Part shown: positions 6,108 through 36,768 of the stretch, piece by piece | Numbering within the stretch: position 1 is the stretch's first letter | Layout of the letters: the number at the start of each line of letters is the position of its first letter | Assembly (NCBI GenBank): GCA_037144045.1 | Contig: JBAWXN010000002.1 | Location: 54,734-118,733, forward strand | DNA length: 64,000 bases | Reading direction: 5' to 3' | Source of the DNA: a bacterium | Lineage (GTDB): Bacteria > Patescibacteriota > Minisyncoccia > Phycocordibacterales > UBA1006 | Made by a program: the position numbers and the translations under genes | Notes under the pieces: model-generated | What the model saw: the letters and a program-made list of their open reading frames with translations, nothing else | What the model was told of the DNA's origin: nothing | Database searches by the model: none

Positions 6108-6602
6108 TTATTTTTGAAGCATTGATTTAACATAATCCACACACGTTTCCAAACTTTCAAAAGTAGGAATTGCATTACGTTCGCAAACAATATCAACATT
6201 ACCCTTCCTCCAAAATCCTTGAGGGCAAATCATGAGACACTTGCCTTCTTTTGCATGTAACCCAAGTTCAAGGAGTGTAACTGGTGATTTAGTATTGGGA
6301 TCAAAGTAGAAAATAATATAATCAGCCATATCCATTCCATTTAATTCCCACTCTACTTGCTTTTTAAATTCTATATTTTCTATTGATTGTATCCATGATG
6401 GATCCCAAGCATCGCGACGAGGATTAAGCAGAGTTACATCAGTATTGCCGAACAATTGCACAACATGGTCTTGCCATTGTTCTGCTACTCCTTCTTCGAT
6501 ACTCCCTGCGAGGAATATTTTAGGCGATGACACCGTAGGAACCAATTCTGGCGCTTTAAACTGAATCATATTACCAGTTTTCTTGGCGAATTGATTCACC
6601 AA
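6108..6602 (-). CDS. nucleoside 2-deoxyribosyltransferase-like (Rcl/DNPH1-fold) protein
   Basis: PKIFLAGSIEEG...LLNPRR...ADYIIFYFD...TLLELGLH fits the flavodoxin-like N-deoxyribosyltransferase/N-glycosidase superfamily. The start may be the internal MIQFKA, avoiding the overlap with prs. Confidence 0.4.
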   Translation of the reverse strand: MVNQFAKKTGNMIQFKAPELVPTVSSPKIFLAGSIEEGVAEQWQDHVVQLFGNTDVTLLNPRRDAWDPSWIQSIENIEFKKQVEWELNGMDMADYIIFYFDPNTKSPVTLLELGLHAKEGKCLMICPQGFWRKGNVDIVCERNAIPTFESLETCVDYVKSMLQK

Positions 6603-7557
6603 GTTTACTGTTAATAATTACTTGAGCAAGCATAGGCGCAAGTGACACTACTTCAAGTTTTTCAAATTTCTTTTCAGGTGCAATGTAAAGACTGTCAGTT
6701 ACAAACACTTTGGTAAATTTAGAATTCTGAAGAATTTCTGGAGCTTCACCATTAAGCAATGCATGTGATGCTGCCATAATTACTTCCTTTGCGCCATGTT
6801 TTTCAATGAGCGCATTCCCCGCTTTTACAGCAGTACTTCCCGTATCAATCATATCATCATACATAAATACCCGTTTACCCGTTACGTCACCGAAAAATTC
6901 CATGTGTTCAATTTCATTAGGTCCAGATCGATATTTAGAAAATGCTGCATTTCCTGTTCCTACTTTTTTTGCAAATGTACGGCCCTCCTTCACAGCGCCT
7001 TCATCCGGACTACAGATCACCCATTCTTCTGGGTTAAGTGTTTCACCTTGTGATTCTAAATATTTTTTCAAGTAATCCCAGAATAATTTTTTCGTTCCAA
7101 TTTTATCTACGGGCACACTCATAAATCCTTCAATGGCGTTGTTATGCAAATGAACACTGGTTAAGTGACTCATTCCTGCAAGTTCGTACATTTTCCCAAG
7201 CAATGATGCATTAATTGACTCGCGACTGTCCGTGGTTTTGTCTTGGCGTTCATAATAATAATACGGAAGCACTACACTAATGCGTGCTGCACCTGATCTG
7301 CGTAATGCGTCGATATAAAACACGAGTCGTAGTACCTCAGTATCAATTGGGTCTTCCATGGTTGAAATCAGCGCAATGTCTTTACCTCGAACCGAAGTTT
7401 CGATAACGGCTTTTTGTTCTCCGTTTTTAAATGTAACTACCGAGCTTTTAATTTCTTCTACTGATTCGTGTTTTTTACGCAACTCATCGATAATTTTTTT
7501 TGGGAGGTCGTGATCGTTTTGAACACCACACACGTAGATAGTTTCTGGTTTGGTCAT
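6571..7557 (-). CDS. prs: ribose-phosphate pyrophosphokinase (PRPP synthetase)
   Basis: PRPP-binding loop VFMYDDMIDTGSTAV, LPYYYYERQDK and N-terminal Prs fold motifs. 328 aa. Confidence 0.9.
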   Translation of the reverse strand: MTKPETIYVCGVQNDHDLPKKIIDELRKKHESVEEIKSSVVTFKNGEQKAVIETSVRGKDIALISTMEDPIDTEVLRLVFYIDALRRSGAARISVVLPYYYYERQDKTTDSRESINASLLGKMYELAGMSHLTSVHLHNNAIEGFMSVPVDKIGTKKLFWDYLKKYLESQGETLNPEEWVICSPDEGAVKEGRTFAKKVGTGNAAFSKYRSGPNEIEHMEFFGDVTGKRVFMYDDMIDTGSTAVKAGNALIEKHGAKEVIMAASHALLNGEAPEILQNSKFTKVFVTDSLYIAPEKKFEKLEVVSLAPMLAQVIINSKLGESIRQENW

Positions 7558-7570
7558 AAATAATTAATAA

Positions 7571-8275
7571 TTACTTGGTTAATAAATAGCGGTCATATAA
7601 ATGAAGCATGGCAAGGGTTGTAGCGCAGTAGCAATACTTGGTAATGTCTTCGAAAGGTACTACACGAACAACAATATGTTCATATTCTTCTTCAAGTCCC
7701 ATCTTAAGTCCATGGTACGTATCCAGAACTTCTTGGGTCACTTCTTTTTCAACCAGGAACGGATAGATAGCTTCGTTGAGGATTCCAGGTGATAAATAAA
7801 ACGGTTTATCAAGGAGTGGAATAACATCATTCGGAGTAAGTCCTAATCGAGTTACCGCATGCGCTTCTTCTTCGAGTTCACGAAGGATCACTGATTCAGG
7901 CGACGTCTGATCGTCAATAAGACCCGCAACTGATTCCGAAATAGTATTTCCTACGGGAACGCGTGGCTGATCTAAGAGGAGCGCATATTTTTTACCTGCA
8001 CAAGTGAGCACGGTAAGTGCAGACACTGCATAATCACGAATCACCACAATCATTCCCGGGAGTTTACCCGCTGGATGAATAATATCTGCCTTAAGTTTTA
8101 TAAAGAGGATGCGTCCGCTTGGAACTCGATCAACCGATTGAATTTCGATTGCCTCGATAATCCATTCTGGATCAAAGGCGTCGAGCCAATTGGTGAACAG
8201 TAATTCTTGAGATATCGTTGCCGCTTCGATCCCTGTAATAGGAATCACCCGATTGTTTTTGGTGATGGTGTGCAT
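7571..8275 (-). CDS. ADP-ribose pyrophosphatase-like Nudix hydrolase (NudF-like)
   Basis: VAGLIDDQTSPESVILRELEEEAH closely resembles the NudF box PAGLIDEGESVEDVARREAIEEAGL. It sits between prs and nadE in the NAD cluster. Confidence 0.55.
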   Translation of the reverse strand: MHTITKNNRVIPITGIEAATISQELLFTNWLDAFDPEWIIEAIEIQSVDRVPSGRILFIKLKADIIHPAGKLPGMIVVIRDYAVSALTVLTCAGKKYALLLDQPRVPVGNTISESVAGLIDDQTSPESVILRELEEEAHAVTRLGLTPNDVIPLLDKPFYLSPGILNEAIYPFLVEKEVTQEVLDTYHGLKMGLEEEYEHIVVRVVPFEDITKYCYCATTLAMLHLYDRYLLTK

Positions 8276-8375
8276 ATGTGATAAAGTTAAAATACCTGAT
8301 AATCATAGCATGCTTGACTCGCGTCGTGCTATTTGCTATGGTAATTAGTGTACTAATAACACTATATCATATCCT

Positions 8376-10319
8376 ATGAAAAATTACAAGTCTCCTTCAA
8401 CCTTTGTTCGTGCTGCAACCATTACCCCTACCCTTACTGTAGGGAACGTTGCCGAAAACACCAAGATCTGCCTTGGCGCTATTAAACAAGCCTACGACGC
8501 CGGTGCACGCATCATCGCTCTGCCTGAACTCGCCCTAACCGGATATACGGCAGCAGACCTGTTTCATACTGACACTCTTAACGCAGCTGTAGAACAAGCG
8601 CTCGTTGATATTGCAGCAGCAACCAAAAAATACGAGGCCACCATCATTATTGGGGCCCCTATCCGAACAGTTCGAGGGATTATCAATGCGGCGGTAGTCT
8701 ACACAGACGGCGAAATTGTAGGGGTAGTGCCTAAAATGCACCTCCCTAACTACAAAGAATTTTATGAGAAACGATGGTTTATTTCTGGATTTGAAACTCC
8801 TGAACCAACTATTTCAATTAATAATGTTGAAGTTCCTTACGGGTCAAACATTTTGTTCACGGATAAAAATAACAAAAAGGTGACTATTGGAATTGAAATT
8901 TGTGAAGACGTATGGATGCCTATACCACCTACTACTGTACACGCACTGAATGGAGCAACTATCTTGATTAACCTTTCGGCGTCAAATGAAATTGTAGGTA
9001 AAGCGGCTTTTCGTAAAGACATGGTAGTAATGCAGTCAGCAAAAACTATCGCCGCGTACATTTACGTGTCATGTGGTGTTCACGAATCTACTACTGATGT
9101 TGTATTTTCTGGACATTCACTCATTGCAGAAAACGGAACACTCATTGCAGAATCACCTCGTTATGCTCGTGAAACCGTAATTACGTACGCCGACATTGAT
9201 ATTGATCACATTGTTACTGATCGCAACCGAACGAATTCATTCGCTGATAATCAAAATGTTGTAGATGTCCCTGCATGGAGCACTATTACGGTTTCTGCAC
9301 CTATTATTAACGGTGTGCCAACCCTTCGTCACGTATCACCTACCCCATTCCTTCCTGCTGACGCAACAAAACGAGCTATCGTTACTGATGATATTTTCAA
9401 TATTCAAGTAGCAGGACTTGCAAAACGACTTCAGAGTATCAATGCTAAAAAAGTAGTCATTGGACTTTCTGGAGGACTTGATTCTACACTTGCCTTCTTG
9501 GTGTGTGTAAAAGTATTTGATTTATTGAAACTTGATCGCAAAGATATTCACGCGATTACCATGCCAGGATTTGGAACAACATCTGGAACTAAAAATAACG
9601 CCTATGATCTAGCAGCTGCAGCTGGTGCAACTCTTGAAGAAATTTCAATTGTTGCAGGAGTGAATCAACACTTCAAAGACATTAAACACGATGACCAAGT
9701 TGAAAACTTTGTGTTTGAAAACAGCCAGGCACGTTATCGAACCATGATCTTGTTTAACAAAGCAAATCAACTAGGTGGTATTGTTGTTGGAACCGGAGAC
9801 CTTTCTGAAATGGCTCTCGGCTGGTGTACCTTCAATGGAGATCATATTTCAAACTACAACGTAAACGGCGGTATTCCAAAAACACTTATTAAATATGTAG
9901 TGCAGCACGTTGCAACAACTGGGGCACCTGATATGCAAAAAGTTCTTACCGACATTTTGGATACCCCTATTTCTCCAGAACTTAAACGAGCTGATAACGA
10001 TAAGATTACTCAGAAAACAGAAGATTTGGTTGGGCCTTACATCCTGCACGACTTCTTCTTGTACCACTTCTTGCGTTGGGGAAGTTCACCGGAAAAAATC
10101 CTTATGCTTGCTGACCTTGCATTCAAGGATTCTGAATTCGACACAGCAACCATTCGTAAATGGTTCAAGGAATTCATGACGCGATTCTTTAAAAATCAAT
10201 GGAAACGTTCAGTTATGGCTGACGGTCCAAAGGTCGGTTCCGTTGCTCTTTCACCTCGTGGTGATTGGCGCATGCCATCTGACGCTGATGTTGCAGAATG
10301 GATAAACAGTGTAGAATAG
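8376..10319 (+). CDS. nadE: glutamine-dependent NAD+ synthetase
   Basis: N-terminal CN-hydrolase domain (PELALTGY, GIEICEDVW with the catalytic Cys) fused to an NAD synthetase domain with the PP-loop GLSGGLDST. 647 aa. Confidence 0.9.
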   Translation: MKNYKSPSTFVRAATITPTLTVGNVAENTKICLGAIKQAYDAGARIIALPELALTGYTAADLFHTDTLNAAVEQALVDIAAATKKYEATIIIGAPIRTVRGIINAAVVYTDGEIVGVVPKMHLPNYKEFYEKRWFISGFETPEPTISINNVEVPYGSNILFTDKNNKKVTIGIEICEDVWMPIPPTTVHALNGATILINLSASNEIVGKAAFRKDMVVMQSAKTIAAYIYVSCGVHESTTDVVFSGHSLIAENGTLIAESPRYARETVITYADIDIDHIVTDRNRTNSFADNQNVVDVPAWSTITVSAPIINGVPTLRHVSPTPFLPADATKRAIVTDDIFNIQVAGLAKRLQSINAKKVVIGLSGGLDSTLAFLVCVKVFDLLKLDRKDIHAITMPGFGTTSGTKNNAYDLAAAAGATLEEISIVAGVNQHFKDIKHDDQVENFVFENSQARYRTMILFNKANQLGGIVVGTGDLSEMALGWCTFNGDHISNYNVNGGIPKTLIKYVVQHVATTGAPDMQKVLTDILDTPISPELKRADNDKITQKTEDLVGPYILHDFFLYHFLRWGSSPEKILMLADLAFKDSEFDTATIRKWFKEFMTRFFKNQWKRSVMADGPKVGSVALSPRGDWRMPSDADVAEWINSVE

Positions 10320-10323
10320 AACT

Positions 10324-10983
10324 ATGCCAGATAAATCATTTCTTAACCCAACGCTTGTGGTAGACATTGTATTATTCACCATTGAGGACGGTGATTTGAA
10401 AGTCCTCTTGATTAATCGTGACGGTGATCCTTTTAAAGGATTTGAAGCACTTCCCGGAGGTTACCTCCTTGCGGGTGAAACAACCAAGACTGCTGCAGAG
10501 CGAGTCCTCAAGGAAAAAGCTGGAGTATCCGATATTTATATCGAACAGCTCTACACGTTTGATGAACTCAATCGTGATCCTCGTGGACCAGTATTTTCAG
10601 TAACCTACCTTGCGCTCGTTCCGCCAGGACTCAATCCTGAAGAACAAGGAACGCAACATCCTAAATGGTTTTCCGTGAAAAAACTTCCTAAGTTAGGATT
10701 TGATCACAAAGCCATTATTGATTACGCTAAGGAACGTCTTCAAGGAAAAATTGAATATACTACTATTGCATTTGGAACCCTCCCTAAACTATTTACCTTA
10801 ACCCAAGTGCAGCAAGTATACGAAGCGATTCTTGAAAAAGAAATTGATAAACGAAATTTCCGTAAGAAGATCGACCAACTTGGCTTCCTTAAAGAAACCA
10901 AGCAAACCCTATCTGGTATGCGCCAGCGCCCTGCGAAGTTGTACACCTTAGGTGCGAAATCTAAAACGATTAAATTGTTTTAA
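10324..10983 (+). CDS. nrtR: NrtR-like Nudix-related transcriptional regulator of NAD metabolism
   Basis: N-terminal Nudix fold with a degenerate box (LPGGYLLAGETTKTAAERVLKEKAGV, Glu replaced by Lys). C-terminal winged helix with NFRKKIDQLGFL...RPAKLYTL, characteristic of NrtR. Embedded among nadE/nadD/pncAB/prs. Confidence 0.6.
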   Translation: MPDKSFLNPTLVVDIVLFTIEDGDLKVLLINRDGDPFKGFEALPGGYLLAGETTKTAAERVLKEKAGVSDIYIEQLYTFDELNRDPRGPVFSVTYLALVPPGLNPEEQGTQHPKWFSVKKLPKLGFDHKAIIDYAKERLQGKIEYTTIAFGTLPKLFTLTQVQQVYEAILEKEIDKRNFRKKIDQLGFLKETKQTLSGMRQRPAKLYTLGAKSKTIKLF

Positions 10984-10984
10984 C

Positions 10985-11020
10985 AAAAAACCCTGTCACT
11001 ATGTGACAGGGTTTCCGTTT
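10985..11020 (+). terminator. Rho-independent terminator
   Basis: ACCCTGTCAC-tat-GTGACAGGGT hairpin followed by a T-rich tract. Confidence 0.5.
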
Positions 11021-11036
11021 TACTAAACGAAAAAAA

Positions 11037-11486
11037 TTAAAGGTTTTGAAGTATCACCAGCGCTTCGTCTTTTGTAATAATTTTATAGTTATTACTGTCT
11101 GAAACCGCAGTATAGTCTTCTTTACCATCTTCAAATCGAACATGGTAGCACAGTCGTAATGTGCCATCATCAAGCTTGAAGAATACTACTGCAATAATTT
11201 CAGCAGGCACATCTCTTCTAAAAGAAAAACTATGTGTGCCAACTAAATATGCTCTTTCGCACTTGGCACGATTTAGATGATCTTCTACTTCTACTTCTGT
11301 TGCAAAAATTGGCTTTAAGCCCGGAAGGAGTTCACCATTATCAGCATAAGCATTGTCACCTAGCCGCTTGGTTTTGTACGGTAAATTATCGAAATGAATC
11401 ATGTCATTTCCGCCAGGGTTGTGATTCATAACAAACACCTCGCCAGGTTTAAGTTCTGGATGATTTTTATTGAATTGCATTCGCAC
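11037..11486 (-). CDS. hypothetical protein (unknown function, inside the NAD cluster)
   Basis: 149-aa ORF between nrtR and nadD. No motif recognised. Confidence 0.35.
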   Translation of the reverse strand: MRMQFNKNHPELKPGEVFVMNHNPGGNDMIHFDNLPYKTKRLGDNAYADNGELLPGLKPIFATEVEVEDHLNRAKCERAYLVGTHSFSFRRDVPAEIIAVVFFKLDDGTLRLCYHVRFEDGKEDYTAVSDSNNYKIITKDEALVILQNL

Positions 11487-11553
11487 ATTTTTAGTTAAAC
11501 AAAGAAATACACTTATTTATAATATCATAAATAAGTGTATTTGTCAATATATC

Positions 11554-12156
11554 TTATCGATACAAGCCTTTTTCCTCGATATAATCATGCACCGCCTGCG
11601 GAATTACTTCTGTGGGTTTTTGATTTCCAGAAATCATGCCCCGTACATCGGTTGCGGATAGTTCTAGAACCCCCGGTAAAAAGGTTGCACGAATACCATG
11701 AGGCACGTCTACAGGAATATTTGAACGATTACGCACAATTAAATCGTGATACGTAACAATTTCATCACCGTATTCCCATGCCAAGATCGATCGCAAGATA
11801 TCATCCCCGGCAATGATTGAAAACGCATAATCAATATGTTTTGCTCGCAATGCACGCAGCGTGTGAAACGTATATGATGGCCGAGGCAGTTCGTCTTCGA
11901 TATCGCACACCTGCATATCCGGATTACTTACCGTTGCACGTCGTACCATTTCAAGGCGGTCTTCGAATGGAGCAAGGCTCCCTAATGGTTTATCAGGATT
12001 ATGTGGCGAAACCACATACCACACCTCGTTCACTAATCCTGCATCAAGGGCCGCTTGCCCAAGTGCAATATGACCGTTGTGAACAGGGTTAAATGAGCCA
12101 AAGAGTAAGCCAACTTTTTTCTTTTCTGCGTATTTCATAGGAATACTATAGCACAA
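11554..12156 (-). CDS. nadD: nicotinate-nucleotide adenylyltransferase
   Basis: FGSFNPVHNGH (HxGH nucleotidyltransferase motif) and the C-terminal LSATDVRGMI (ISSTxIR motif). 200 aa. Confidence 0.85.
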   Translation of the reverse strand: MCYSIPMKYAEKKKVGLLFGSFNPVHNGHIALGQAALDAGLVNEVWYVVSPHNPDKPLGSLAPFEDRLEMVRRATVSNPDMQVCDIEDELPRPSYTFHTLRALRAKHIDYAFSIIAGDDILRSILAWEYGDEIVTYHDLIVRNRSNIPVDVPHGIRATFLPGVLELSATDVRGMISGNQKPTEVIPQAVHDYIEEKGLYR

Positions 12157-12210
12157 GGAGCTACATTGACTTTTTATATAATATGTGATTAATTATAAAA
12201 AAATTTACAA

Positions 12211-13077
12211 ATGAAGAACAAAACAAGCACGTTTTTTGCACTCATCCTGAAATCACCCAAACTTCTGAAACTTTTCAAAATATTAAAATTAATGAAGTTT
12301 GCAAAACCCATGGTGACCATCATTACTATTGCAATTTCAATACTGGCATATTCTATCGTTTATAGTCCATGGATAGCAGTAGGACTCGTGACACTCATTT
12401 TTGTACACGAGATGGGCCACGTCATTGCAATGAACCGACTCGGATTTAAAACAAGTGGACCAGTATTCATACCGTTTCTAGGTGCCGCACTTTTTGCACC
12501 GAGAGACATGACCAGAAAACAAGAAGCCATTCTTGGTATTGGCGGTCCACTACTCGGTAGCCTCTTTGCTTTTCTTGTTGCCGGTATTGCATACCTTACA
12601 CATTCAAAAGAACTCATGATGATCGGTTATCTAGGTATTTTTATAAACCTATTTAATATGGTACCTATTAGTCCCCTTGACAGTGGAAGAGTTACTCAGG
12701 CGGTTGGTAAATTTTTTCCAATTATTGGCTTCTTAATACTTATCGGTGTCACGCTTGCTTTTAAATCTCCGGGGATACTCCTTATTTGGATCTTAGTTCT
12801 TTTTGATTTTACCTTCATGAAGGTTCAGCTACGCTTCTTTTTTGCTCTAATTGTTGAGCTTGCCATGATTTTCATGTTAACTCAAGGAATTGGCATTAGT
12901 GACGATGGTCAATTTTGGTCAGTATTCGCAGACGTAATTATTGGTGGCCTTTACTTATTACTCATTGGAGCAAGTATTGCCTCTGACGCAAAGAAGACGG
13001 AGGAAGTTTTTCTGAAGGCGCAAACCGCGAAGCTCTTACATTTAAAGAAAAACTGTTCTGGTTTTTTACATGGTTAA
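12211..13077 (+). CDS. site-2 protease family (peptidase M50) membrane metalloprotease
   Basis: HEMGH zinc motif in a TM helix. NMVPISPLDSGR matches the second M50 signature (NxxPxxxLDGG). Multiple TM segments. Confidence 0.7.
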   Translation: MKNKTSTFFALILKSPKLLKLFKILKLMKFAKPMVTIITIAISILAYSIVYSPWIAVGLVTLIFVHEMGHVIAMNRLGFKTSGPVFIPFLGAALFAPRDMTRKQEAILGIGGPLLGSLFAFLVAGIAYLTHSKELMMIGYLGIFINLFNMVPISPLDSGRVTQAVGKFFPIIGFLILIGVTLAFKSPGILLIWILVLFDFTFMKVQLRFFFALIVELAMIFMLTQGIGISDDGQFWSVFADVIIGGLYLLLIGASIASDAKKTEEVFLKAQTAKLLHLKKNCSGFLHG

Positions 13078-13259
13078 GTACATCTACAGTTTTACTGGTG
13101 TCATTATTCTATATAAAAAGCTCATTACAAGTTTTTGCACTTACTTAATATATACCTCCCTACAATTTTGCGGGGAGGTTATTTTGTTACTTGACTTTAA
13201 ACGTAATTCATGCTATTGTGTATACGGAAGTTTTTCCAAAACAAAAAATTTAAGAAACA

Positions 13260-13799
13260 ATGAAAGGAGCACTTATCGGATTTGGACTTTTTGCCGTAAT
13301 TGGCTTAGGCCTATTTTTTTACTACATCGGTTTGAAAAACACTGAACAACGCCAACGTAACGCAGTAAATGCACAAACACAGGCAGCGCAGGTTAATTTT
13401 GACGCCATGTGGAAAATCATTAAAGAACAAGCCGGTGTGGCTGATAAGCACAAGGATGCATTTAAGGAAATTTTTATTGGGCAGGCAGAGGCTCGCTATT
13501 CAAAAGACGGGAACCTTATGTTCAAAATGATTACCGAAGACAATCCTGCTTTCACACCCGAACTATATGCAAAATTAATGACTTCTATTGAAGCAAACCG
13601 TAAGGCGTTTGAATTCGAACAGAAAAAATTAATTAGCATGAACCAGGTGCACACCGATTTTGTAACTACATTCCCCGGTAGCATACTTGGCAAAGAAGTA
13701 ATTGAAATTAAATTAGTAACTTCAGCCAGAACAAAAAATGCTTACGAAACCGGTGAAGACAACGAAACATTAATTGACGAGAAGAAACCCACTAAGTAA
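13260..13799 (+). CDS. membrane-anchored hypothetical protein (LemA-like topology, motifs not conserved)
   Basis: Single N-terminal TM followed by a helical soluble domain. It lacks the LemA RRxDLIPNLV motif. Immediately precedes the Cys-rich membrane protein. Confidence 0.35.
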   Translation: MKGALIGFGLFAVIGLGLFFYYIGLKNTEQRQRNAVNAQTQAAQVNFDAMWKIIKEQAGVADKHKDAFKEIFIGQAEARYSKDGNLMFKMITEDNPAFTPELYAKLMTSIEANRKAFEFEQKKLISMNQVHTDFVTTFPGSILGKEVIEIKLVTSARTKNAYETGEDNETLIDEKKPTK

Positions 13800-13802
13800 C
13801 CC

Positions 13803-14939
13803 ATGGTAATATACGGAGCCGTACTTATCTCGATTATTGTTACCGCGCTCCTCTTCCTTTATTTTAGAAAGCAAATCGCGTGGTGGGAATATTTTATTCC
13901 CATCCCGGTTTCTTTACTATTAGTAATTGGAATGAAGGCCATGATTGAACAAACCCAAGTAACCTCTACGGAATACTGGGGCAGCATGGTTGCGCGCGTT
14001 GAATACTACGAAGACTGGGATGAGTGGATCACTCAAACCTGCTACAAAGAGTGCTGCTGTGATAAAGATGGTAAAAACTGTGGTCAAGAGCCATACGACT
14101 GCTCCCACAGAGACTACCATTCAGCCTACTGGCAAATCATTACTACAACAGGAGAAACGATTTCGATAACCGAATCGGAGTACGCCCGTATCAAAGGCAT
14201 ACTTGGCAATGAAACATTCAAAGATCTTGGTCGTGATTATTACACCAAGGACGGAGATGAATACTATTGCACCTGGGATGGGAGTGAAGCAAAAGCAATA
14301 CCTGTTACAACGGTTCACAGTTACGAAAACCGCGTAAAAGCAACCGACCTCAACGTGTTTCACTTTGACAAGGTTGATGATAGTACTAAAGTTCACTACG
14401 AACTGAAAGACTATCCCGGCATGGTAAACAATAACTACACTCAAAATTCATTACTCGGAGATAATTCCCCCGATGCAGTCCAAGCTAATAAAAAGCTTAA
14501 CTACATCAACGGGAAACTCGGACCTAAAAAACAGGTTCGCGTATTCCTCCTTGTTTTCAAAGACCAACCACTTGATGCAGGAATGTACCAAGAATGGTAC
14601 TGGGCCGGAGGAAACAAAAATGAGTTTGTGGTATGCGTTGGCATTGACCGTAACCGTAATGTTACCTGGTGCAAACCTATTAGTTGGACGTACAACGAAA
14701 CACTTAAGGTTGAGACCCGTGATTTTGTTACCCAGCAGAAGCAAGTGAACTTAACCGCTATCGCCAACTACTTGGAATCAGCCATAGATACCAAATTCCA
14801 AAGAAGACATTTCAAGGAGTTTAACTATCTAACGGTTGAACCACCAACGTGGGCCATTGTTCTTACCTACATCATTACTCTATTAGTCAATTTTGGAATC
14901 GGCTACTGGGTAATCAATAACGAATTTGACGAAGAGTAA
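13803..14939 (+). CDS. Cys-rich membrane protein with N- and C-terminal TM helices
   Basis: 378 aa. TM at both ends, a central domain with CYKECCCDKDGKNCG...YDCSH...YYCTWDG, and several N-glycosylation-like NxT/S sites. No known family recognised. Confidence 0.35.
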   Translation: MVIYGAVLISIIVTALLFLYFRKQIAWWEYFIPIPVSLLLVIGMKAMIEQTQVTSTEYWGSMVARVEYYEDWDEWITQTCYKECCCDKDGKNCGQEPYDCSHRDYHSAYWQIITTTGETISITESEYARIKGILGNETFKDLGRDYYTKDGDEYYCTWDGSEAKAIPVTTVHSYENRVKATDLNVFHFDKVDDSTKVHYELKDYPGMVNNNYTQNSLLGDNSPDAVQANKKLNYINGKLGPKKQVRVFLLVFKDQPLDAGMYQEWYWAGGNKNEFVVCVGIDRNRNVTWCKPISWTYNETLKVETRDFVTQQKQVNLTAIANYLESAIDTKFQRRHFKEFNYLTVEPPTWAIVLTYIITLLVNFGIGYWVINNEFDEE

Positions 14940-15009
14940 TCTTCATATCCCTTCTCTTAATTGAGGAGGGATTTTTTTAGGTAAATAAATCCAGTCCATT
15001 TTCTAACTA

Positions 15010-15038
15010 TTGACTTTTATCTATTAATATGTTATATT
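15010..15038 (+). promoter_or_regulatory. sigma70-like promoter upstream of pncA
   Basis: TTGACT-N17-TATATT about 90 nt upstream of the pncA start, in an AT-rich spacer. Confidence 0.35.
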
Positions 15039-15124
15039 AGTATAGATAGAGTATACAAAATATCATGTCTGTGATATATTGTACTTAATACACTAATTAG
15101 TTCATCTTAATAAATTTCATCAAT

Positions 15125-15748
15125 ATGATTGCATTCCTAATTACCATTCTCTTTCTGGTTGCCATAGTATATGTCCTTACCAGAATTATAGCTCTACTAA
15201 ACATCGACATGCAAAATGGTTTCACTCCAGGCGGAGAGCTTGGCGTGAAAGAAGGTGACGTAATTATACCAATAATTAACCGACTCACCTTCTGGTTCAT
15301 CCATATCTTTCGCGCTCTTGTCGTATTTTCTAGAGACTGGCATCCGCGTGTTTCTAAACACTTCAAGGAATTTGGCGGCAATTGGTCAACCCACTGTGTA
15401 ATTAATACACATAGTGCGGAATTCCATAAGGATTTGTTTGTTCCGAAAAATGCCAACATTCTTTCAAAAGGTTTGTACGAAGACGACCAAGCCTACTCGG
15501 CATTCGATAAGAATGCTCGCATCAACGGCATGGACCTAGCCACCTACTTGCGCAAGAAAGGAATAAAGATCCTCTTTGTCACCGGTCTCGCAACAGACTG
15601 GTGTGTGAAGGAAACTGTCCTAGATGCGCGAAAAAATGGATTCTGGGTATTTGTAATCACGAGCGCTATGCGTCCCGTGAATTTGAAACCTGGAGACGAA
15701 GAACGTGCCATCAAGGAAATGAAGGCCGCCGGTGCCATCATTATCTAA
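15125..15748 (+). CDS. pncA: nicotinamidase/pyrazinamidase (isochorismatase family)
   Basis: ALLNIDMQNGF (Asp), FSRDWHP, WSTHCV (catalytic Cys) and GLATDWCV. The N-terminus has an extra 20-aa hydrophobic extension, so the start is uncertain. Confidence 0.8.
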   Translation: MIAFLITILFLVAIVYVLTRIIALLNIDMQNGFTPGGELGVKEGDVIIPIINRLTFWFIHIFRALVVFSRDWHPRVSKHFKEFGGNWSTHCVINTHSAEFHKDLFVPKNANILSKGLYEDDQAYSAFDKNARINGMDLATYLRKKGIKILFVTGLATDWCVKETVLDARKNGFWVFVITSAMRPVNLKPGDEERAIKEMKAAGAIII

Positions 15749-15754
15749 TTTCCA

Positions 15755-15787
15755 AAAACAGCGCCCGGCTAACCCGGGCGTTTTTAT
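15755..15787 (+). terminator. Rho-independent terminator after pncA
   Basis: CGCCCGG-ctaac-CCGGGCG followed by TTTTTATT. Confidence 0.55.
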
Positions 15788-15816
15788 TACTCTAAGTTCG
15801 TGATATATTTAATTTT

Positions 15817-17136
15817 ATGACAACCAATAGAACTACAGAAAACCCAAAAACATTCTCAAGTCTTAATCTCGGACAGCTCGACGATTCGATGTTGAACGGC
15901 CAGATTGTTACTTCACTTCTTGAAGATGACTTTTATAAATTTTCCATGGGACAGGTGCTTTTCGACCATCCAGAATATGGCAATGAAATAATGGTTTGGC
16001 GATTCAAATGCCGAACTAAAATCGCACTTGGTGAATATATTACCGAGGCAGATTTCATGAACGAATACCACCATGTCACGAAACTGCGAGCAACAAAGAC
16101 TGAACTACATTACCTCCGAGGAACCAATGAATACGATGTCCGCATGTTTACTGAAGAGTACCTCGAACACCTTGCAAATCTCCAGGTACCTCCCGCAACA
16201 TTTCATGTAACCCCTGATAATCATATCGAAATTGAAGTCGCAGGACCATGGAGTCATGTGATGCATGCAGAAATGCCCATTTTGAAAATAATCAACACCC
16301 TCTTCTATCGCAGTCAGTTAAAAAATATGTCTCGGATACAACGAGAAGCGATCTATGCAGAAGGAATTAAACGACTCCATGGAACGATACAGCAAATCAA
16401 GGAGCATCCGCATGTTAAATTTTCTGATTTTGGAAACCGTCGCGCATTCGGACCCGTGTGGCATGATTATGTAGTGGCTCGATGTGCGGAAGAATTAGGT
16501 GACCAATTTATTGGGACTTCGAACGTTGCCCTTGCATCTAAATATGATCTGTCACCTATCGGAACCTGTGCTCACGAACTTTCTATGGGAATCACTGCAC
16601 TTATGTTCGACGGCACCGGACAGTCCGTAAAGGATTCACTCAACCGACTCCATGAAATTTGGTGGAATAAGTATGGTCAAGGACTCTCAATTAGTCTTCC
16701 CGATACCTACGGCACGACATTCACCCTTGATCTTATGACGGAACAAATGCTCCGCGACTGGAAAGGATTCCGTATCGATTCCAAAGACCCCATGGTGGCT
16801 ATTCCCGAATTGATCGAAAAATATACCGCTCTAGGTATCGATCCAAAAACAAAAATGGCAATTCCTAGTGACGGGCTCACTGTTGAATCAATGATCGCCA
16901 TCGCTGATACATTCCAAGGACAGATGAAAGTATCGTTTGGTATTGGAACGAATCTTACGAACAATATGGGTCTCAAACAACTCTCTATTGTGGTAAAACC
17001 ATATTCACTCGGAGGAAAATACTGCGTGAAACTTTCCGACAACCTCGAAAAGGCTATGGGAGAACCAGAGACCGTTGCTGCTTACAAGAAAGCACTCGGA
17101 TATCACGAAACCTATGACAAAGAAACTATTGTTTAA
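15817..17136 (+). CDS. pncB: nicotinate phosphoribosyltransferase
   Basis: LLEDDFYKFSM (PncB N-terminus), DFGNRRA and GTSNV motifs. 439 aa. Confidence 0.85.
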   Translation: MTTNRTTENPKTFSSLNLGQLDDSMLNGQIVTSLLEDDFYKFSMGQVLFDHPEYGNEIMVWRFKCRTKIALGEYITEADFMNEYHHVTKLRATKTELHYLRGTNEYDVRMFTEEYLEHLANLQVPPATFHVTPDNHIEIEVAGPWSHVMHAEMPILKIINTLFYRSQLKNMSRIQREAIYAEGIKRLHGTIQQIKEHPHVKFSDFGNRRAFGPVWHDYVVARCAEELGDQFIGTSNVALASKYDLSPIGTCAHELSMGITALMFDGTGQSVKDSLNRLHEIWWNKYGQGLSISLPDTYGTTFTLDLMTEQMLRDWKGFRIDSKDPMVAIPELIEKYTALGIDPKTKMAIPSDGLTVESMIAIADTFQGQMKVSFGIGTNLTNNMGLKQLSIVVKPYSLGGKYCVKLSDNLEKAMGEPETVAAYKKALGYHETYDKETIV

Positions 17137-18943: not shown

Positions 18944-18976
18944 AAAAACCCGCACGTAATCGTGCGGGAATTTTTA
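18944..18976. terminator. bidirectional Rho-independent terminator
   Basis: CCCGCACG-taat-CGTGCGGG with flanking A/T runs, between convergent genes. Confidence 0.55.
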
Positions 18977-18996: not shown

Positions 18997-20190
18997 TTAT
19001 ACTCTTGTACGAACTTTACCATTACCACCAATTCCTGATAAGCCTTTGTCGAGCTTGTCCCATGGAATGGTCGCACCTAACTGAATCATGGCCGCAATAT
19101 AACGGTATTCTTCATCAGGAACAGTAATTTTAGGGAATTCGATAATTGCCAAGGTGAAGCGAGTAATGTTTCTTTCTAAGCGAACATAATCGGCACCAAC
19201 TGCAATATCAAGCTGCTTCAGCATTTGATCGCGATTGATTGCGCCTACTGCGGCAGGAAGAGATGGATTCTCTAAAACCTCTTTAATGCGCGTAGCGTCA
19301 TAAGCCAAGGCTTTTGCAATCGGAATACCGAGTCCTGCAAACACCTTATTAATGCTTTCATTCACTGCTTCTGCTTCGTCATGCAAGCCGTTAGTTTCTG
19401 GTGGGGTAATCATACCAGACATTAAGCCAGTCTTTCCACCACCTAACTGTCCCATTAATAACATCGCAATATTGGCACTACTACCCGCTCCTGCATTGTA
19501 TGCTTCAAGCCACTGTGAAAGCATTTCGTTGAAGCCACGCAATGAACCCCAAAGATTTGCTTCTAATTTTGCAAGAAATGCTTTTTGGCGAGCATCGCTC
19601 ATGAATGAGCCTTCGATTCCCATAGCGTTCAATACCTCAGCATAACTTCTGGTAACAACCAGCTTTTGAAGCTTAAAGTACTCAGCTCCTACCGGTTCAG
19701 CTTGCTCTTCTGCAAACACTTCCATTTTTTCTTTGATAATCTTTGGGAGTCCAAACAGTCCAAGCTTATTTGCTATTCCTGCTTTTACAGCAGAAAGCAC
19801 TTCAGTCTTTCCTACTTTCAACTCACCACCAACTTTCAGAGAAGCAACAAAGCTTTCATCTTCGGGCACACTTGGCAATACTGCATCATACGCATTTGGA
19901 GTAGCACGTTCCTCTGCAACTACAACCGGCGCACCGCGCAATTTAGCGAGGTTCAACTTAAGTTTCCCTAATGGGATATTAAGCGACCCAAGCGCTTTAA
20001 TTAATTCCTCATCGCTGAAAGCTTCCTTACTGGAAAGCACTTCGAGAGCCGCAGTAGCTGATTTTTCATCCACTGGATCGCCAGTGTGAACTGCAAGCAA
20101 CGCAGAAATTTCATCGAGGTTTTTTTCTACCGCCTCGGCAAAGGGCTGAACTCTGTCGTTCCAACCCTTAAAATAATTTGTTGTACTCAT
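18997..20190 (-). CDS. hypothetical protein (397 aa)
   Basis: No confident family. Contains a Gly-rich stretch NAGAGSSANIAMLLMGQLGGGKTGLMSG. Confidence 0.3.
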   Translation of the reverse strand: MSTTNYFKGWNDRVQPFAEAVEKNLDEISALLAVHTGDPVDEKSATAALEVLSSKEAFSDEELIKALGSLNIPLGKLKLNLAKLRGAPVVVAEERATPNAYDAVLPSVPEDESFVASLKVGGELKVGKTEVLSAVKAGIANKLGLFGLPKIIKEKMEVFAEEQAEPVGAEYFKLQKLVVTRSYAEVLNAMGIEGSFMSDARQKAFLAKLEANLWGSLRGFNEMLSQWLEAYNAGAGSSANIAMLLMGQLGGGKTGLMSGMITPPETNGLHDEAEAVNESINKVFAGLGIPIAKALAYDATRIKEVLENPSLPAAVGAINRDQMLKQLDIAVGADYVRLERNITRFTLAIIEFPKITVPDEEYRYIAAMIQLGATIPWDKLDKGLSGIGGNGKVRTRV

Positions 20191-20342
20191 TACTTTTTCT
20201 TTTTTAGTTTAAAAATACAATTTCTACAATCAAGATATCCCATTTAAAGATATTTGTCAAGCAACCTGTGGATAAGTGTAATTTGTACACTAAAAAACAG
20301 ATTCTTGCGAATCTGTTGATACTATCTCCTAGTATTATGTTG

Positions 20343-21737
20343 TTATAAGAGCATTTTATCATCCTCCGTAGGGCCAAATGATACCATTCTAACCGGAACC
20401 TTGAGCTGCTCCATCAACTGCTGTGCGCAGAGCTCGGCAATTGCACCATCATCAGCGTAATCTAAAAGATTATGACTAACAATGTTTGGCGTGCACTGCT
20501 GTAGCAGTTCCCCGAGCTTTTGTTGACGGCTGAAGCAGTCCTCAGGTTTTCCAGTAAACAATTTCATGTCACCGTGTTCGGTAAAAAACGAAGGATCTGT
20601 AGCATTGGTATAGCTCGTGCATAGTTTCCAATCACCCATTACTTTTACTTGATCAAACCAAGTAATTGCAAGTGCATCGAAAAATTGAGGACCACCGCAG
20701 GCAGCAATCGCATAACGAAGCGCTACAGCATCAAGCGGACCGATACGAATCTTCCCCTGCCAACGATTATCGTCCTTACTACTATCAGGTAGCATATGCG
20801 GAAGCATTTCTGGAGATTCGGTAACGAGAGGGCCTGCACCGTGGCGGACTTGGTATGCACGACTAATGCCAAGCTTTACCATACGTCCATCATACCCACA
20901 TTCATTAATCATCTGGAGTGTATTACTCGGCAAGGTTTTAAGATAGCTGGTATGCGGATGAAAGCCAACATAACGATCAGTAAGAACCCCATGAGAACTT
21001 TCCACAATAACCTTACCTTCCTGTCCTAAAATATCGCGCTTCAGATATTCCAAATCAACTATTTTTACCAGACTTGCGAACTTGTTAAATTCTAGAACAA
21101 TGCGATTTACAAAATCATCGTCATTTAATAGTTCTAATTGCTGACTCGCAATCATCCGGTCAGTATCTGGAAATTTCTGAACTAATTCAACAATAGGTCG
21201 GAGTTCTACACGTTTCATAGTGCGTACTGCCTCCAATCGTGCGCGTAATGTAGATGCATTACAATCTTTCGCATAAATCGCGAGCTCAGGATATTGCTCT
21301 GCATCTTTCAGCGCTTCTCCACCTCCTATTCCTACCGTACCTTTTGGTTTATCGCCTCGCGCTAATTCTTTGAGCTTTGAGGAAATACTATGGAACGGAG
21401 TAATGCAGAGCGCATCCTCATCAACAGTGACAAGGTCATACACATTACTCACTCCTGATTCATATTTCAGAATATTAGCTTCGTGGATAAAGCGATAAGG
21501 TTCAATTACAAACAATTTACTGATGTGGGTTCTGAGTCCTTCAAAGGTCCCACAGCCCATCTGACTAAATACTCCTGATTGACCACGACTTGTTTTAACT
21601 CCGTGACCACCCTGAGCACCTCCAACTTTGATGACGGTATGTGCACCTGGGAAGGTACACAACTTATGTACCACACCTCCCTTGCCTCCATCACCAGGAC
21701 CTAGATCGGTTACTGTATAGAGTGTTTTGTCTTCCAT
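20343..21737 (-). CDS. divergent adenylosuccinate synthetase (PurA/PurZ) family ligase
   Basis: Core PurA blocks are recognisable: LGPGDGGKGG (cf. GDEGKGK; Asp13 kept, Lys18 replaced by Gly), GGAQGGHGV (cf. NAGHT; catalytic His kept), ESSHGVLTD (cf. EGAQGT), RAYQVRHGAGPLVTE (cf. KAYTTRVGGGPFPTE), and IGPLDAVALRYAI (cf. GWLDLVALRYA). 464 aa with insertions. Confidence 0.55.
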   Translation of the reverse strand: MEDKTLYTVTDLGPGDGGKGGVVHKLCTFPGAHTVIKVGGAQGGHGVKTSRGQSGVFSQMGCGTFEGLRTHISKLFVIEPYRFIHEANILKYESGVSNVYDLVTVDEDALCITPFHSISSKLKELARGDKPKGTVGIGGGEALKDAEQYPELAIYAKDCNASTLRARLEAVRTMKRVELRPIVELVQKFPDTDRMIASQQLELLNDDDFVNRIVLEFNKFASLVKIVDLEYLKRDILGQEGKVIVESSHGVLTDRYVGFHPHTSYLKTLPSNTLQMINECGYDGRMVKLGISRAYQVRHGAGPLVTESPEMLPHMLPDSSKDDNRWQGKIRIGPLDAVALRYAIAACGGPQFFDALAITWFDQVKVMGDWKLCTSYTNATDPSFFTEHGDMKLFTGKPEDCFSRQQKLGELLQQCTPNIVSHNLLDYADDGAIAELCAQQLMEQLKVPVRMVSFGPTEDDKMLL

Positions 21738-21843: not shown

Positions 21844-22995
21844 TTAGAGCCAAATGTTTGATTCGTTCTTTTTGGCTTTTCGGGTATCTGTGGCGCCCTT
21901 ATCAATTTCTTCCGAAGCATCTGCTACGTCAGAACCAATAGGCCACAAATCGTTTTTATCAGCGAACATATCACCTGCTACGGGCAATTTTGAAAAATTC
22001 TCAAGTGCAGCCTGAGCCCCAATCGGAATTTTAGAAACTGCGCGAACAATGGTTGATGCCACACTACTGGAAAGCTTGGCTTCGTTTACTAAAAACGCTT
22101 CAAGGTTTTGTAAATCAAGCGTACCTTCTGTTAAGCCAATAATTGCTGCCTGCACCTCTGGTAGGTATTTGGTATCCTCCAAAATAATTACTCTATCATT
22201 ACCATAAATCTCTTTCCAGAAATTGGTAACGCTCGAATTAGTACCTATTTGCAACATAAATGCATGGGCTCGGGTTAGTAAATCATTCACCACCTGCTTG
22301 AGCTCTGGTAATTGTTTTTCATTGATGTCGTGTCCGTTTTCACGAACCTTATCGAGCACCTCTTCACCAAAGACTCTTTTAAGGTTGCTTACACTGAATT
22401 TTTTTCTGCTATCCGCATCGGTAGCCATAAAATGATAATGTTTCAATTCATAGCGCTGTAGCTGGGTATGCGTCAGATAAGCCGCACCAAACAATCCATA
22501 GTGTGGATCCTCTGTTCCATCACCGCCCTGCTTTTCAGGAACCATCAGGCGCATTTGCTCTGCAATTTGCTCATCCATTTCAGCCTGAGAACGGCACAGA
22601 ATGTAATTATCTGTCACGTCTCCGAAAATTGCTGTAATCATTTGCACATCATAGCGCGAAAGTGGTGCCAGAGGACCCCTTGCTAACAGGTTATACGTTT
22701 TTGGAAGTGAATGAAACGCAAGGTCCACATTACCTCCCATTGATCCTGTTGTGTCGAGCTCCATTTCAATAAGCATCGCAACACCCCGAACCAAGGTAAA
22801 GCGTTTTCCTTTTGCTTCAAACGGTCCATAAGATCGTCTGATAACACCGTAGCCTTTTGGGTCTACTAATTCATGAAGGCCTTTACCTTCTTTATGGCGT
22901 TGCTCACCTTTACTGGTTGCTGATCCGCCATCTTCTTTTACTTCAGTAGCTACACGTTTGTAAGCTGTTTCTGAAAATGTACTTCTTCCTGACAT
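21844..22995 (-). CDS. vWA (von Willebrand factor A) domain protein
   Basis: MIDAS motif LDTTGSMGGN and the downstream ITAIFGDVTDNY block fit a vWA fold. The start was chosen at the internal MSGRSTF because ORF 21844..23154 overlaps the upstream gene. Confidence 0.5.
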   Translation of the reverse strand: MSGRSTFSETAYKRVATEVKEDGGSATSKGEQRHKEGKGLHELVDPKGYGVIRRSYGPFEAKGKRFTLVRGVAMLIEMELDTTGSMGGNVDLAFHSLPKTYNLLARGPLAPLSRYDVQMITAIFGDVTDNYILCRSQAEMDEQIAEQMRLMVPEKQGGDGTEDPHYGLFGAAYLTHTQLQRYELKHYHFMATDADSRKKFSVSNLKRVFGEEVLDKVRENGHDINEKQLPELKQVVNDLLTRAHAFMLQIGTNSSVTNFWKEIYGNDRVIILEDTKYLPEVQAAIIGLTEGTLDLQNLEAFLVNEAKLSSSVASTIVRAVSKIPIGAQAALENFSKLPVAGDMFADKNDLWPIGSDVADASEEIDKGATDTRKAKKNESNIWL

Positions 22996-23065: not shown

Positions 23066-23926
23066 CTATACAGGATAGGCTGCGAACTTGTGAAACCCAA
23101 GAGGCCAGAGTGACTTGATGAGCTTGTAAAATCGAGTATGTGCTTGTTGTGCATCTGATTCTGCTCCCGCTTTGAATTCTTTCAATAGATCTTCATAGCT
23201 AGAATTAATCATTTGCTCATCCGGCACAAGAGTCCCTGTTTCTAAATCTGCACCTAATACCTCAAGAACCGCATCGGTAACCGCTGCGATTTCCTCGGTA
23301 GTTTCCTGTGGAGAAAGCTTAGTTTCAATAACCGCCTTACTCCAATCGAATACTGCCACATAGTGCTGTTCACGATTGATTAGAATGTTTTCTGTGGTTA
23401 AATTATTAATAACCACATTAATACTCTGAGTGAATACCAACATTTTGAGTAGCTTACCAAGTATCCACGCGCTCGTTCTCGGATCCACACGGACCTGGTC
23501 GCGAGACGTTATGAACGACAAAGGTGCAAGCTCGTTTAATTTTCCCGAAGGGTTAATGTTTGGAAATCCAAGCACGATTACCCTGCGGTTTTCATGCTCG
23601 GTCATAACAAAGGTCTCAACGACCTCAGGAAAACAAAAGTGATAATTCAAAGGTATCTTTTCAGGATACTTTTTCGCAAATTCTGCTTCGATTACATCTG
23701 ATTCGCTACGCATCGTTTTTAAAAGGTACGCCTCACGGTCGAGCACAGGATTGTGCTCAGCCTTTTTGGCTACCTTAAAAATTGCCGTAGTTCCGTCTTC
23801 GAGTACGCATTCGCGTAATCGGTAAATGTCAGTCTCGCCAATTTCTTGCCTGACCTGGTACGTCTTGCCCGCTGGGCTTCTTATTACTATGTCCATTACT
23901 GTTTCTTTTTTAAATTTAGTTATCAA
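23066..23926 (-). CDS. protein-kinase-like fold protein lacking the catalytic HRD Asp (putative pseudokinase)
   Basis: Gly-loop-like EIGETDIYRL, VAIK-like AIFKVAKK, an alphaC Glu, NNLTTENILI in place of HRDLKPENIL, and DWS in place of DFG. About 70 nt upstream of the vWA gene. Confidence 0.4.
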   Translation of the reverse strand: MITKFKKETVMDIVIRSPAGKTYQVRQEIGETDIYRLRECVLEDGTTAIFKVAKKAEHNPVLDREAYLLKTMRSESDVIEAEFAKKYPEKIPLNYHFCFPEVVETFVMTEHENRRVIVLGFPNINPSGKLNELAPLSFITSRDQVRVDPRTSAWILGKLLKMLVFTQSINVVINNLTTENILINREQHYVAVFDWSKAVIETKLSPQETTEEIAAVTDAVLEVLGADLETGTLVPDEQMINSSYEDLLKEFKAGAESDAQQAHTRFYKLIKSLWPLGFHKFAAYPV

Positions 23927-35560: not shown

Positions 35561-35590
35561 AAATCCCTTTAGGGGATTTTTTGTTTTGTG
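35561..35590 (+). terminator. Rho-independent terminator after hup
   Basis: AAAAATCCCTTTAGGGGATTTTTTG hairpin plus T-run. Confidence 0.55.
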
Positions 35591-35661
35591 TGCGGCGCAA
35601 GGGAATCGAACCCTTATCCACTGCTTGGAAGGCAGTTATTCTACCACTAAACTAGCACCGC
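35591..35661 (-). tRNA. tRNA-Gly (anticodon TCC), CCA not encoded
   Basis: Minus-strand cloverleaf: acceptor GCGGTGC/GCGCCGC, D-arm TAGTTTAGTGGTAGAA, anticodon stem-loop ACTGC-CTTCCAA-GCAGT, T-arm GGGTTCGATTCCC. Confidence 0.8.
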
Positions 35662-36262: not shown

Positions 36263-36271
36263 TATAAACAA

Positions 36272-36754: not shown

Positions 36755-36768
36755 GGGGATTTTTCATA

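Follow-up and report, generated by a model that had tools for sequence, protein, structure and literature searches.

Phage PurZ is a precedent for re-tooled PurA enzymes that create new nucleic-acid chemistry. A phage-associated PurA derivative with altered substrate use, it is a protein of about 340 amino acids (aa) that takes dGMP as its substrate, and its hallmarks are a Ser in place of Asp13, the use of ATP or dATP, deletions like those of short archaeal PurA, and synteny with datZ and mazZ (PMC8342488). The subject here is another member of that superfamily, gene C, found in a 64,000-nucleotide stretch of DNA (the window; contig JBAWXN010000002.1, positions 54,734 to 118,733) from a chromosome of the candidate phyla radiation (CPR), or Patescibacteria. 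On the evidence of its sequence, C is an enzyme of the adenylosuccinate synthetase fold that is neither ordinary PurA nor phage PurZ. It represents a large new branch, as yet without a name, of this known superfamily, and it is encoded beside partners that recur with it across the phylum:

23066..23896, minus strand: A, protein-kinase-like protein, 276 aa (profile match and synteny; the ATG at 23896 was picked by alignment of orthologues)
21844..22995, minus strand: B, cytosolic vWA-domain protein with an intact MIDAS-type motif, 383 aa
20343..21737, minus strand: C, PurA-like ligase, 464 aa (GDGGKGG P-loop, His at the Gln224 position, NRWQGK loop, TWFD)
18997..20190, minus strand: D, all-alpha protein with a weak HhH/SAM-like N-terminus, 397 aa
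17265..18926, plus strand: E, Pol-beta-superfamily nucleotidyltransferase, 553 aa, convergent to A-D

Several parts of this arrangement have described counterparts from which they depart. Canonical PurA (E. coli and Y. pestis; PDB 1ade and 3hid) has the same fold as C and belongs to the same length class, and the catalytic Asp13, Lys16 and His41 are common to both; C carries extra insertions, and whereas canonical PurA stands alone or near purine genes, C is encoded with vWA, pseudokinase-like and nucleotidyltransferase partners. Relative to PurZ the lengths diverge in opposite directions, C being longer than PurA and PurZ shorter. The pair A and B recalls the vWA-kinase-PP2C triads, in which a vWA/MIDAS gene likewise sits beside a gene of protein-kinase fold, but it has no PP2C or FHA partner, A is without the conserved catalytic Lys and Asp, and unlike the triads the pair is tied to a PurA-like ligase and a Pol-beta nucleotidyltransferase, a combination that none of the papers searched contained. 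E shares the G-S...D-x-D Pol-beta core of HI0073/MntA and of the PAP/TUTase-type nucleotidyltransferases; it is larger than HI0073/MntA, has no HepT/HEPN partner, and reaches 16 bits against an MntA cutoff of 60. Nor did the papers searched on mycobacteriophage PurA-like genes and on CPR adenylosuccinate enzymes yield any description of this vWA/kinase/PurA/nucleotidyltransferase system.

Family placement and active site of gene C

Gene C is an ATG-started open reading frame (ORF) whose product, 464 aa long (432 aa in E. coli PurA), begins with MEDKTLYTVTDLGPGDGGKGG. An earlier note on this DNA, made from the sequence alone, had proposed a divergent PurA-family ligase here, lengthened by insertions and keeping the catalytic Asp and His behind an altered P-loop, and in all of these respects it was right: the frame is real, and Pfam Adenylsucc_synt (PF00709) covers the protein in full with 112 bits (residues 15-459 on model positions 8-413 of 416). 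Among solved structures the best match to C as a single sequence is a bacterial PurA (E = 1e-11), and the matches of the family profile include a large number of PurA structures (E from 1e-20 down to 1e-13 in strength) as well as archaeal PurA (E = 1e-8), with no PurZ structure among them at E<=0.01. Identity to E. coli PurA is about 25% (55 bits). C scores 83.5 bits against the cutoff of 402 for the NCBIfam purA equivalog PRK01117, and 81.8 bits against 395.6 for TIGR00184. The earlier note had also asked whether the protein is PurA or PurZ-like. The doubt about ordinary PurA was well placed, given a score of some 83 bits where about 400 are required, replaced sites and a clade apart, and the suggestion of PurZ was not, given 13 bits against 300.

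The homologue search returned over 736 relatives, of which the two nearest share 91% and 78% identity with C. Hundreds of them, at 50-59% identity and 460-470 aa, come nearly all from Patescibacteria/CPR metagenome-assembled genomes (MAGs), and all are labelled 'adenylosuccinate synthase', an annotation through which metabolic reconstructions of CPR organisms may wrongly assign IMP-to-AMP conversion. A scan of GTDB species representatives gave 80 loci, from Paceibacteria and Falkow-, Uhr-, Moran-, Nomura-, Davies- and Wildermuthbacteria to Saccharibacteria, the last with Nanosyncoccus among them and at 38-40% identity to C. The product of gene B is 100% identical to the NCBI MAG protein WCG20_01960. 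Base composition is uniform across the window at about 40% GC, so there is no sign of a foreign origin for the region, and C of the CPR type turned up in one IMG/VR contig only, which marks the type as chromosomal.

In E. coli PurA, Thr129 and Arg143 are ligands of the IMP 5'-phosphate, Arg143 being contributed by the other subunit, and Lys331 stacks on the guanine. The roles of E. coli residues were taken from established knowledge together with PMC8342488, the latter being the source for the role of Arg303 and for the PurZ equivalent of Arg143. Equivalent positions, given here in E. coli numbering, were read from a MAFFT alignment of C with 120 homologues, E. coli PurA, the PurA-like protein of mycobacteriophage Sebata and phiVC8 PurZ. 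Two other alignments served as a cross-check, one a HMMER profile alignment with Y. pestis PurA, the other smaller and curated.

The N-terminal motif of C reads GPGDGGKGG. Its family keeps Gly12, Asp13 (115 of 120 homologues), Gly15, Lys16, Gly17, Gly40-His41, Thr128, Asp333 and Ser414-x-Gly416, and with them Thr239 (as Ser or Thr), a KAY-x-(T/I)R-x-G-x-GP block and a G-x-LD block; the catalytic Asp13 and His41 are D16 and H45 of C. Across homologues of 38-91% identity Asp13, Lys16, Gly40-His41, the RHGAGP block, Asp333 and many Gly and Pro residues are invariant. The altered P-loop is likewise a property of the whole family, with Gly for Glu14 in 118 and for Lys18 in 113 of the 120 homologues. 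The substrate sites tell a different story from the one in the earlier note, which had the IMP- and aspartate-binding blocks conserved. Thr129 is Val or Ile throughout (120/120), Gln224 is His in 117, and Arg143 has become Glu or Asp in 100, a reversal of charge; Asn38 is replaced by Gln, Val273 by His, and Arg131 is lost. Of the IMP-site residues Asn38, Thr129, Arg143, Gln224 and Thr239, then, the alignment has only the last in place. The aspartate loop, G-A-T-T-G-R-R-R-R in PurA, is one residue shorter and reads x-N-R-(W/Y/F)-Q-G-K-(V/I)-R, with Trp/Gln at Thr300/Thr301 across the family. At the guanine-specificity positions Asp333 and Ser414 are kept, and Lys331 is Trp in all 120. Such a pattern suggests that the phosphoryl-transfer machinery is conserved, and that the pockets for the 5'-phosphate, for the 6-oxo/N7 edge and for L-aspartate have been rebuilt.

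Partners of C in Patescibacteria and in phages

The cluster has the layout A->B->C->D with E convergent, and this order is constant across 85 Patescibacteria loci that range from Paceibacteria to Saccharibacteria. In blastp searches with the window proteins, B accompanies C in 84 of these loci, A in 79, E in 76 and D in 63, and family hidden Markov models (HMMs) bring D to 70. B-type vWA genes lie immediately upstream of C in the window and in 84 of the 85 loci, and A lies directly upstream of B in 79. The neighbours thus are conserved partners, and the earlier view of a gene on its own in an accessory-looking stretch has to be given up. In three relatives with 52-78% identity to C the arrangement is the same and the outer flanks differ. 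Because D is absent or replaced in 15 of the 85 loci, the core of the cluster is A, B, C and E, with D as a variable member. Four of those 15 loci end right after C, six have C abutting E, and L086 has a different, 409-aa ORF in the place of D; in the remaining four the position is taken by genes unrelated to D and homologous to one another, D'. The D' copies (L009:11413-12453, L012:11726-12766, L064:4873-5883 and L082:11517-12620) encode proteins of about 340-367 aa with 45-62% mutual identity, none of which matches the D HMM.

The Patescibacteria account for a large part of bacterial diversity; their genomes are tiny, and they rely on hosts to supply nucleotides. Since the five-gene cluster keeps its fixed order in such genomes, from Paceibacteria to oral Saccharibacteria, it is likely to be important to their biology, and four of its five proteins are without a family assignment.

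A matches the catalytic-loop region of CK2-alpha by profile (E = 4e-5), and Pfam Pkinase weakly in 6 of 25 members. The catalytic positions are poorly kept, with the beta3 Lys in only 41 of 80 sequences, no HRD Asp, and Asp (59) or Asn (19) at the DFG position; W154, G157, H188 and Y267 are invariant. On this pattern of residues A is probably a pseudokinase scaffold. For B, the family sequence profile has no match in the PDB and Pfam returns only noise on the family members. D is predicted to be all-alpha (pLDDT, the structure-confidence score, 81); a structural-neighbour search found no meaningful neighbour, its sequence profile has no clear match in the PDB, and Pfam gives weak SAM/HhH traces at the N-terminus. 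E matches the minimal nucleotidyltransferase HI0073 by profile (E = 9e-6), and in Pfam 22 of 25 members match Polbeta, 16 NTP_transf_2 and 10 the MTPAP-like palm. Its motif G374-S375 ... D386-x-D388 is conserved in at least 74 of 77 sequences, and by this measure E is apparently an active nucleotidyltransferase; members have 550-650 aa, including large conserved N- and C-terminal regions of no recognised fold. Between the window and L008:12803-14542 E is also the fastest to diverge, at 46% identity, with D at 86%, C at 78%, A at 77% and B at 65%.

An exhaustive search of 1.84 billion cluster representatives sized the clade at 1,376 representatives (E<=1e-30), and in two of these, P0377 (1129 aa) and P0421 (1102 aa), a PurA-like domain and an E domain, both complete, are joined in one protein. 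In P0377 the C HMM matches residues 2-462 (E = 4e-114) and the E HMM residues 510-1128 (E = 3e-143), and in locus L094 A (E = 6e-41) and B (E = 3e-46) lie ahead of the fusion gene, while D is missing. Fusion in some lineages of two genes that elsewhere are encoded separately and convergently is strong evidence that C and E act together, and it narrows the hypotheses on function. P0440, a 700-aa member of the same clade from a JGI contig (3300071358), has a C-terminal extension of about 230 aa that matches neither E nor any Pfam family; its gene is preceded by genes of 318, 314 and 399 aa.

Phages carry relatives of C as well. A tblastn search of C against 50,697 phage records gave 227 matches, 202 of them in cluster C mycobacteriophages (Bixzunavirus, with Bxz1 and Sebata), whose PurA-like proteins are the closest annotated relatives, with 33% identity over 99% of the query (E = 1e-44 to 1e-57), much nearer to C than E. 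coli PurA is. In Sebata the PurA-like gene (gp263) comes after a 'Ser/Thr kinase' gene, gp260, and a 340-aa hypothetical protein; the CPR family HMMs recognise the first as A (E = 3e-22) and the second as B (E = 2e-17), so that the gene order is kept. This module is viral and not chromosomal, has an 88-aa gene between B and C, and is without a D or E homologue in the 8.6 kb examined. The Bixzunavirus enzymes (PHROG 1211) share the WQGK-x-R loop and the RHG-x-GP block with C, and the Sebata protein keeps Gln224 and a GDAGKGT P-loop where C has His and GDGGKGG. The gene directly upstream of the PurA-like gene is B-like also in Rhizobium phage RHph_TM3_3_6 (E = 3e-15) and in Vibrio phage phiKT1024 (E = 1.5e-16). 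Only the family HMMs revealed these phage B genes, single-sequence tblastn of B, D and E against phages giving no match. A vWA and PurA-like module in some 200 mycobacteriophages and in Rhizobium and Vibrio phages offers tractable experimental systems.

RefSeq and PHROG name the Bixzunavirus PurA-like genes, in Sebata (L002) and in about 200 records besides, '2-aminooxy adenylosuccinate synthetase', which is the PurZ label. The proteins keep Asp13 and reach 56 bits against the PurZ cutoff of 300, and the label is probably a propagated over-annotation. A further record, L092 (CAKLQH020000034.1, 'Acinetobacter phage MD-2021a'), carries alaS, epd, hisZ, a canonical purA, yggG and crp, and looks like a fragment of bacterial chromosome labelled as phage.

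One CPR genome holds a second PurA-like paralogue (L018:5229-7790), 1 kb from the main cluster on the opposite strand and with a B-like vWA gene of its own; it has GDEGKGT, Gln224 and an ENRWQG loop, and is closest to the mycobacteriophage type (37% identity). A contig of 224 kb and 68% GC (L096/L097), phage-like in the manner of jumbo phages, with many small co-oriented ORFs and a DNA ligase, carries an A-like, a B-like and a PurA-like gene one after another, and the gene behind them encodes 567 aa with a weak HATPase_c_3 match. In L098 the order is B, C, convergent E, then D.

The phage and paralogue enzymes score 100-166 bits where purA asks for about 400, and 37-56 bits against the 300 for PurZ. 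With the CPR type they share the N-x-(W/F/Y/H)-Q-G loop, the loss of Arg143 and R-H-G-x-G-P where PurA has R-V-G-x-G-P, the RHG hallmark being seen across 150 clade representatives. They also keep GD(E/A)GKG and Gln224, which makes the CPR type, with GDGGKGG and His224, the most derived branch. In a distance-based neighbour-joining tree (443 columns, 100 bootstraps, with E. coli and Acinetobacter PurA as canonical references) the CPR type is monophyletic in 100 of 100 replicates and groups with the L018 paralogue and Sebata in 93, and the vWA-linked enzymes separate from both PurA references and phiVC8 PurZ in 99. They form a clade of their own, apart from the two canonical references and from PurZ; at about 1,376 clusters it is, after PurZ, a second branch, larger and unexplored. 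The earlier note had proposed clustering with the housekeeping PurA of related taxa as the sign of mere lineage-specific drift. C does cluster with proteins so named, trivially, by their label, and every one of them shares the altered sites and the unusual partners.

A proposed role for C and its competitors

We put at about one half the probability that C is the ligase subunit of a conserved, previously undescribed multi-protein system, with A, B, C and E as its core and D variable, and with substrates that would be other than free IMP and L-aspartate. That pair seems unlikely for C because the ligands of the 5'-phosphate are lost or reversed in charge and the aspartate loop is replaced. In the proposed chemistry C would spend an NTP to phosphorylate the oxygen of a carbonyl, in the simplest case a purine 6-oxo group, and an amine would then take the place of the phosphate. 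Two features, the coupling or even fusion of C to a nucleotidyltransferase that looks active and the loss of its clamps for a free 5'-phosphate monoester, would make the most likely substrate a 6-oxopurine nucleotide whose 5'-phosphate is already in diester linkage. Examples are a nucleotide handed by E to an acceptor, the 3' end of an RNA, and a dinucleotide. A and B would probably act as scaffold, as presenter of the substrate or as regulator. The phosphate donor may be GTP or ATP, a choice that sequence cannot decide, Trp331 being as in ATP-using PurZ, yet Asp333 being kept.

A fuller version of this proposal, which we advance tentatively and at somewhat less than even odds, has A-B-C-E as an unrecognised CPR system shared with large phages, in which E and C would work consecutively on one substrate, held by the vWA/pseudokinase scaffold, to give a new N6-substituted or aminated purine nucleotide conjugate. 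The conjugate would be an RNA with a modified end, an adduct of protein and nucleotide, or a dinucleotide or cofactor of a new kind. If this version is true, such a nucleotidyltransferase-plus-ligase pathway in CPR bacteria and phages would be categorically new, and its product a hallmark of the biology of host-dependent organisms. The genomic context offers hints of two kinds. Weak ones point to RNA: the HhH-like N-terminus of D, Pnk near the Sebata module, and an exonuclease and TROVE near the Vibrio phage module. Others point to NAD and nucleotide salvage: the NAD genes of the window, genes for a phosphoribosyltransferase-like protein and for NMNAT/NUDIX near the Rhizobium phage module, and NADAR in the Vibrio phage. 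They do not discriminate between RNA and salvage.

Several points weigh against the proposed system and role. The residue equivalences come from sequence alignment, in which the aspartate loop is ambiguous by one position; Lys329 and Arg331 of C may substitute for Arg303 and Arg305, and Asp333 is retained, so C may still carry out an IMP/aspartate/GTP reaction; regulation of C by E through nucleotidylation would account for the C-E fusion just as well; purB was looked for in the window and in flanks, and a purB or a second canonical purA may lie elsewhere in these genomes; and the tree holds only two canonical PurA references. A plainer account makes C the strongly drifted housekeeping adenylosuccinate synthetase of the Patescibacteria, with A, B, D and E as lineage-specific regulators, E for instance nucleotidylating C as GlnE does glutamine synthetase. 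We consider that account unlikely, though worth keeping in view. C is conserved throughout a phylum of very small, nucleotide-salvage-dependent genomes, it retains the catalytic Asp, Lys and His along with Asp333 and Ser414 as well as the two possible stand-ins just named, every source annotates it as adenylosuccinate synthase, its surroundings, in the window as in some relatives, include genes for NAD and nucleotide salvage, and a nucleotidyltransferase fusion fits the coupling of an enzyme to its regulator. What tells against it is that the reversed charge at R143, the loss of T129, His for Q224 and Trp/Gln for Thr300/Thr301 run through the family, that C falls far below each purA equivalog cutoff, and that a search for purB in the 64-kb window and the 1.44 Mb of flanks of the 85 related loci was negative, whole genomes not being covered. 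We know of no canonical PurA that requires a vWA/pseudokinase pair. The same vWA and PurA-like module occurs, moreover, in phages of PurA-bearing hosts: Mycobacterium, Rhizobium and Vibrio have purA and purB of their own, so a plain adenylosuccinate synthetase would be redundant in their phages.

The remaining explanations fare less well. vWA and kinase-like pairs and Pol-beta nucleotidyltransferases are common in conflict systems, and the five genes might be a module of biological conflict, for defence in CPR bacteria and for counter-defence or host takeover in phages, with C making or destroying a nucleotide signal or toxin or restoring a pool under attack. Bacteria have the module in common with phages of several unrelated lineages, E far outpaces its neighbours in divergence (46% against 65-86% identity), D is swapped or lost, and the phage copies lie near genes of NAD-reconstitution type, NADAR, Pnk and TROVE. 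We nevertheless judge this distinctly unlikely, while noting that it is partly compatible with our proposal: none of the five proteins matched a defence model in PADLOC-DB v2 (a 10.9-bit PglW kinase-fold trace appeared for A only), conservation is vertical, phylum-wide, single-copy and in fixed order, unlike that of patchy defence islands, the flanking genes are housekeeping or salvage genes, and the CPR type occurs in but a single IMG/VR contig. That C is catalytically dead, or an NTP-binding switch or scaffold within a vWA/pseudokinase signalling complex, strikes us as very unlikely. The invariance of Asp13, Lys16, Gly40-His41, RHGAGP and Asp333 is typical of a selected active site, and less derived relatives keep GDEGKG and Gln224; the case for a dead enzyme lies in the loss of Glu14 and Lys18 from the P-loop, in the replacement of Gln224, and in the pseudokinase-like partner A, with which a complex of degenerate enzymes is conceivable. 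To a PurZ-like C, making N6-succino-2-amino-dAMP from dGMP for 2-aminoadenine (Z) DNA, we give almost no credence. C belongs to the PurA superfamily, shares Trp at the Lys331 position with phiVC8 PurZ in the alignment, and has phage relatives that bear the PurZ label, but it scores 13.1 bits against the cutoff of 300 of the PurZ model (NCBIfam NF038379), keeps Asp13, lacks the PurZ-type deletions and has PurZ as an outgroup in the tree, and on these grounds the assignment was rejected. The earlier note had also proposed a check for datZ; phmmer with phiVC8 PurZ or DatZ against the window ORFs gave nothing at E<=1, with mazZ not searched separately.

Transcription signals and surroundings of the cluster

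The intergenic gaps are 70 nt between A and B, 106 nt between B and C and 152 nt between C and D, and the ends of D and E are 70 nt apart. They contain the following signals:

20296..20317, minus strand: terminator-like hairpin and T-run after C, 9-bp stem with 3 GC pairs, 26 nt past the stop
20232..20260, minus strand: promoter-like TTGACA-17-TATCTT ahead of D, consensus match only
18949..18968, both strands: strong GC-rich bidirectional terminator-like hairpin between D and E, 8-bp stem with 7 GC pairs, T-runs on both strands

A terminator of its own had been claimed for C, and a hairpin with a T-run does follow the stop codon; its stem is weak and AT-rich, making it a candidate only. The total of promoter-like sites in the region is not above shuffled expectation, and the transcription signals are therefore leads only.

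An island of NAD salvage and regulation adjoins the cluster (window 6108-17136; Pfam and synteny with the annotated relative L008):

6108-6602: nucleoside deoxyribosyltransferase-like
6571-7557: PRPP synthetase
7571-8275: NUDIX
8376-10319: NadE
10324-10983: NrtR-like regulator
11554-12156: NadD-like CTP_transf gene
15125-15748: PncA
15817-17136: PncB

In seven other CPR loci pncA, pncB or both lie within 10 kb of the cluster. The NAD-salvage genes were considered as part of the unit and excluded, since their conservation reaches no further than the closest relatives and a small number of other loci.

Farther along the window, four tRNA genes in 3.5 kb (35590-39095; Gly-TCC, Pro-TGG, Arg-TCG and Gly-GCC) are an ordinary stretch with no relation to the cluster. 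Homologues of vault proteins are unusual in bacteria, and a major-vault-like protein of 830-847 aa (Pfam Vault_3 and MVP_shoulder) is encoded two genes from the cluster in a Paceibacteria genome (L006:15044-17536, L007:12816-15359).

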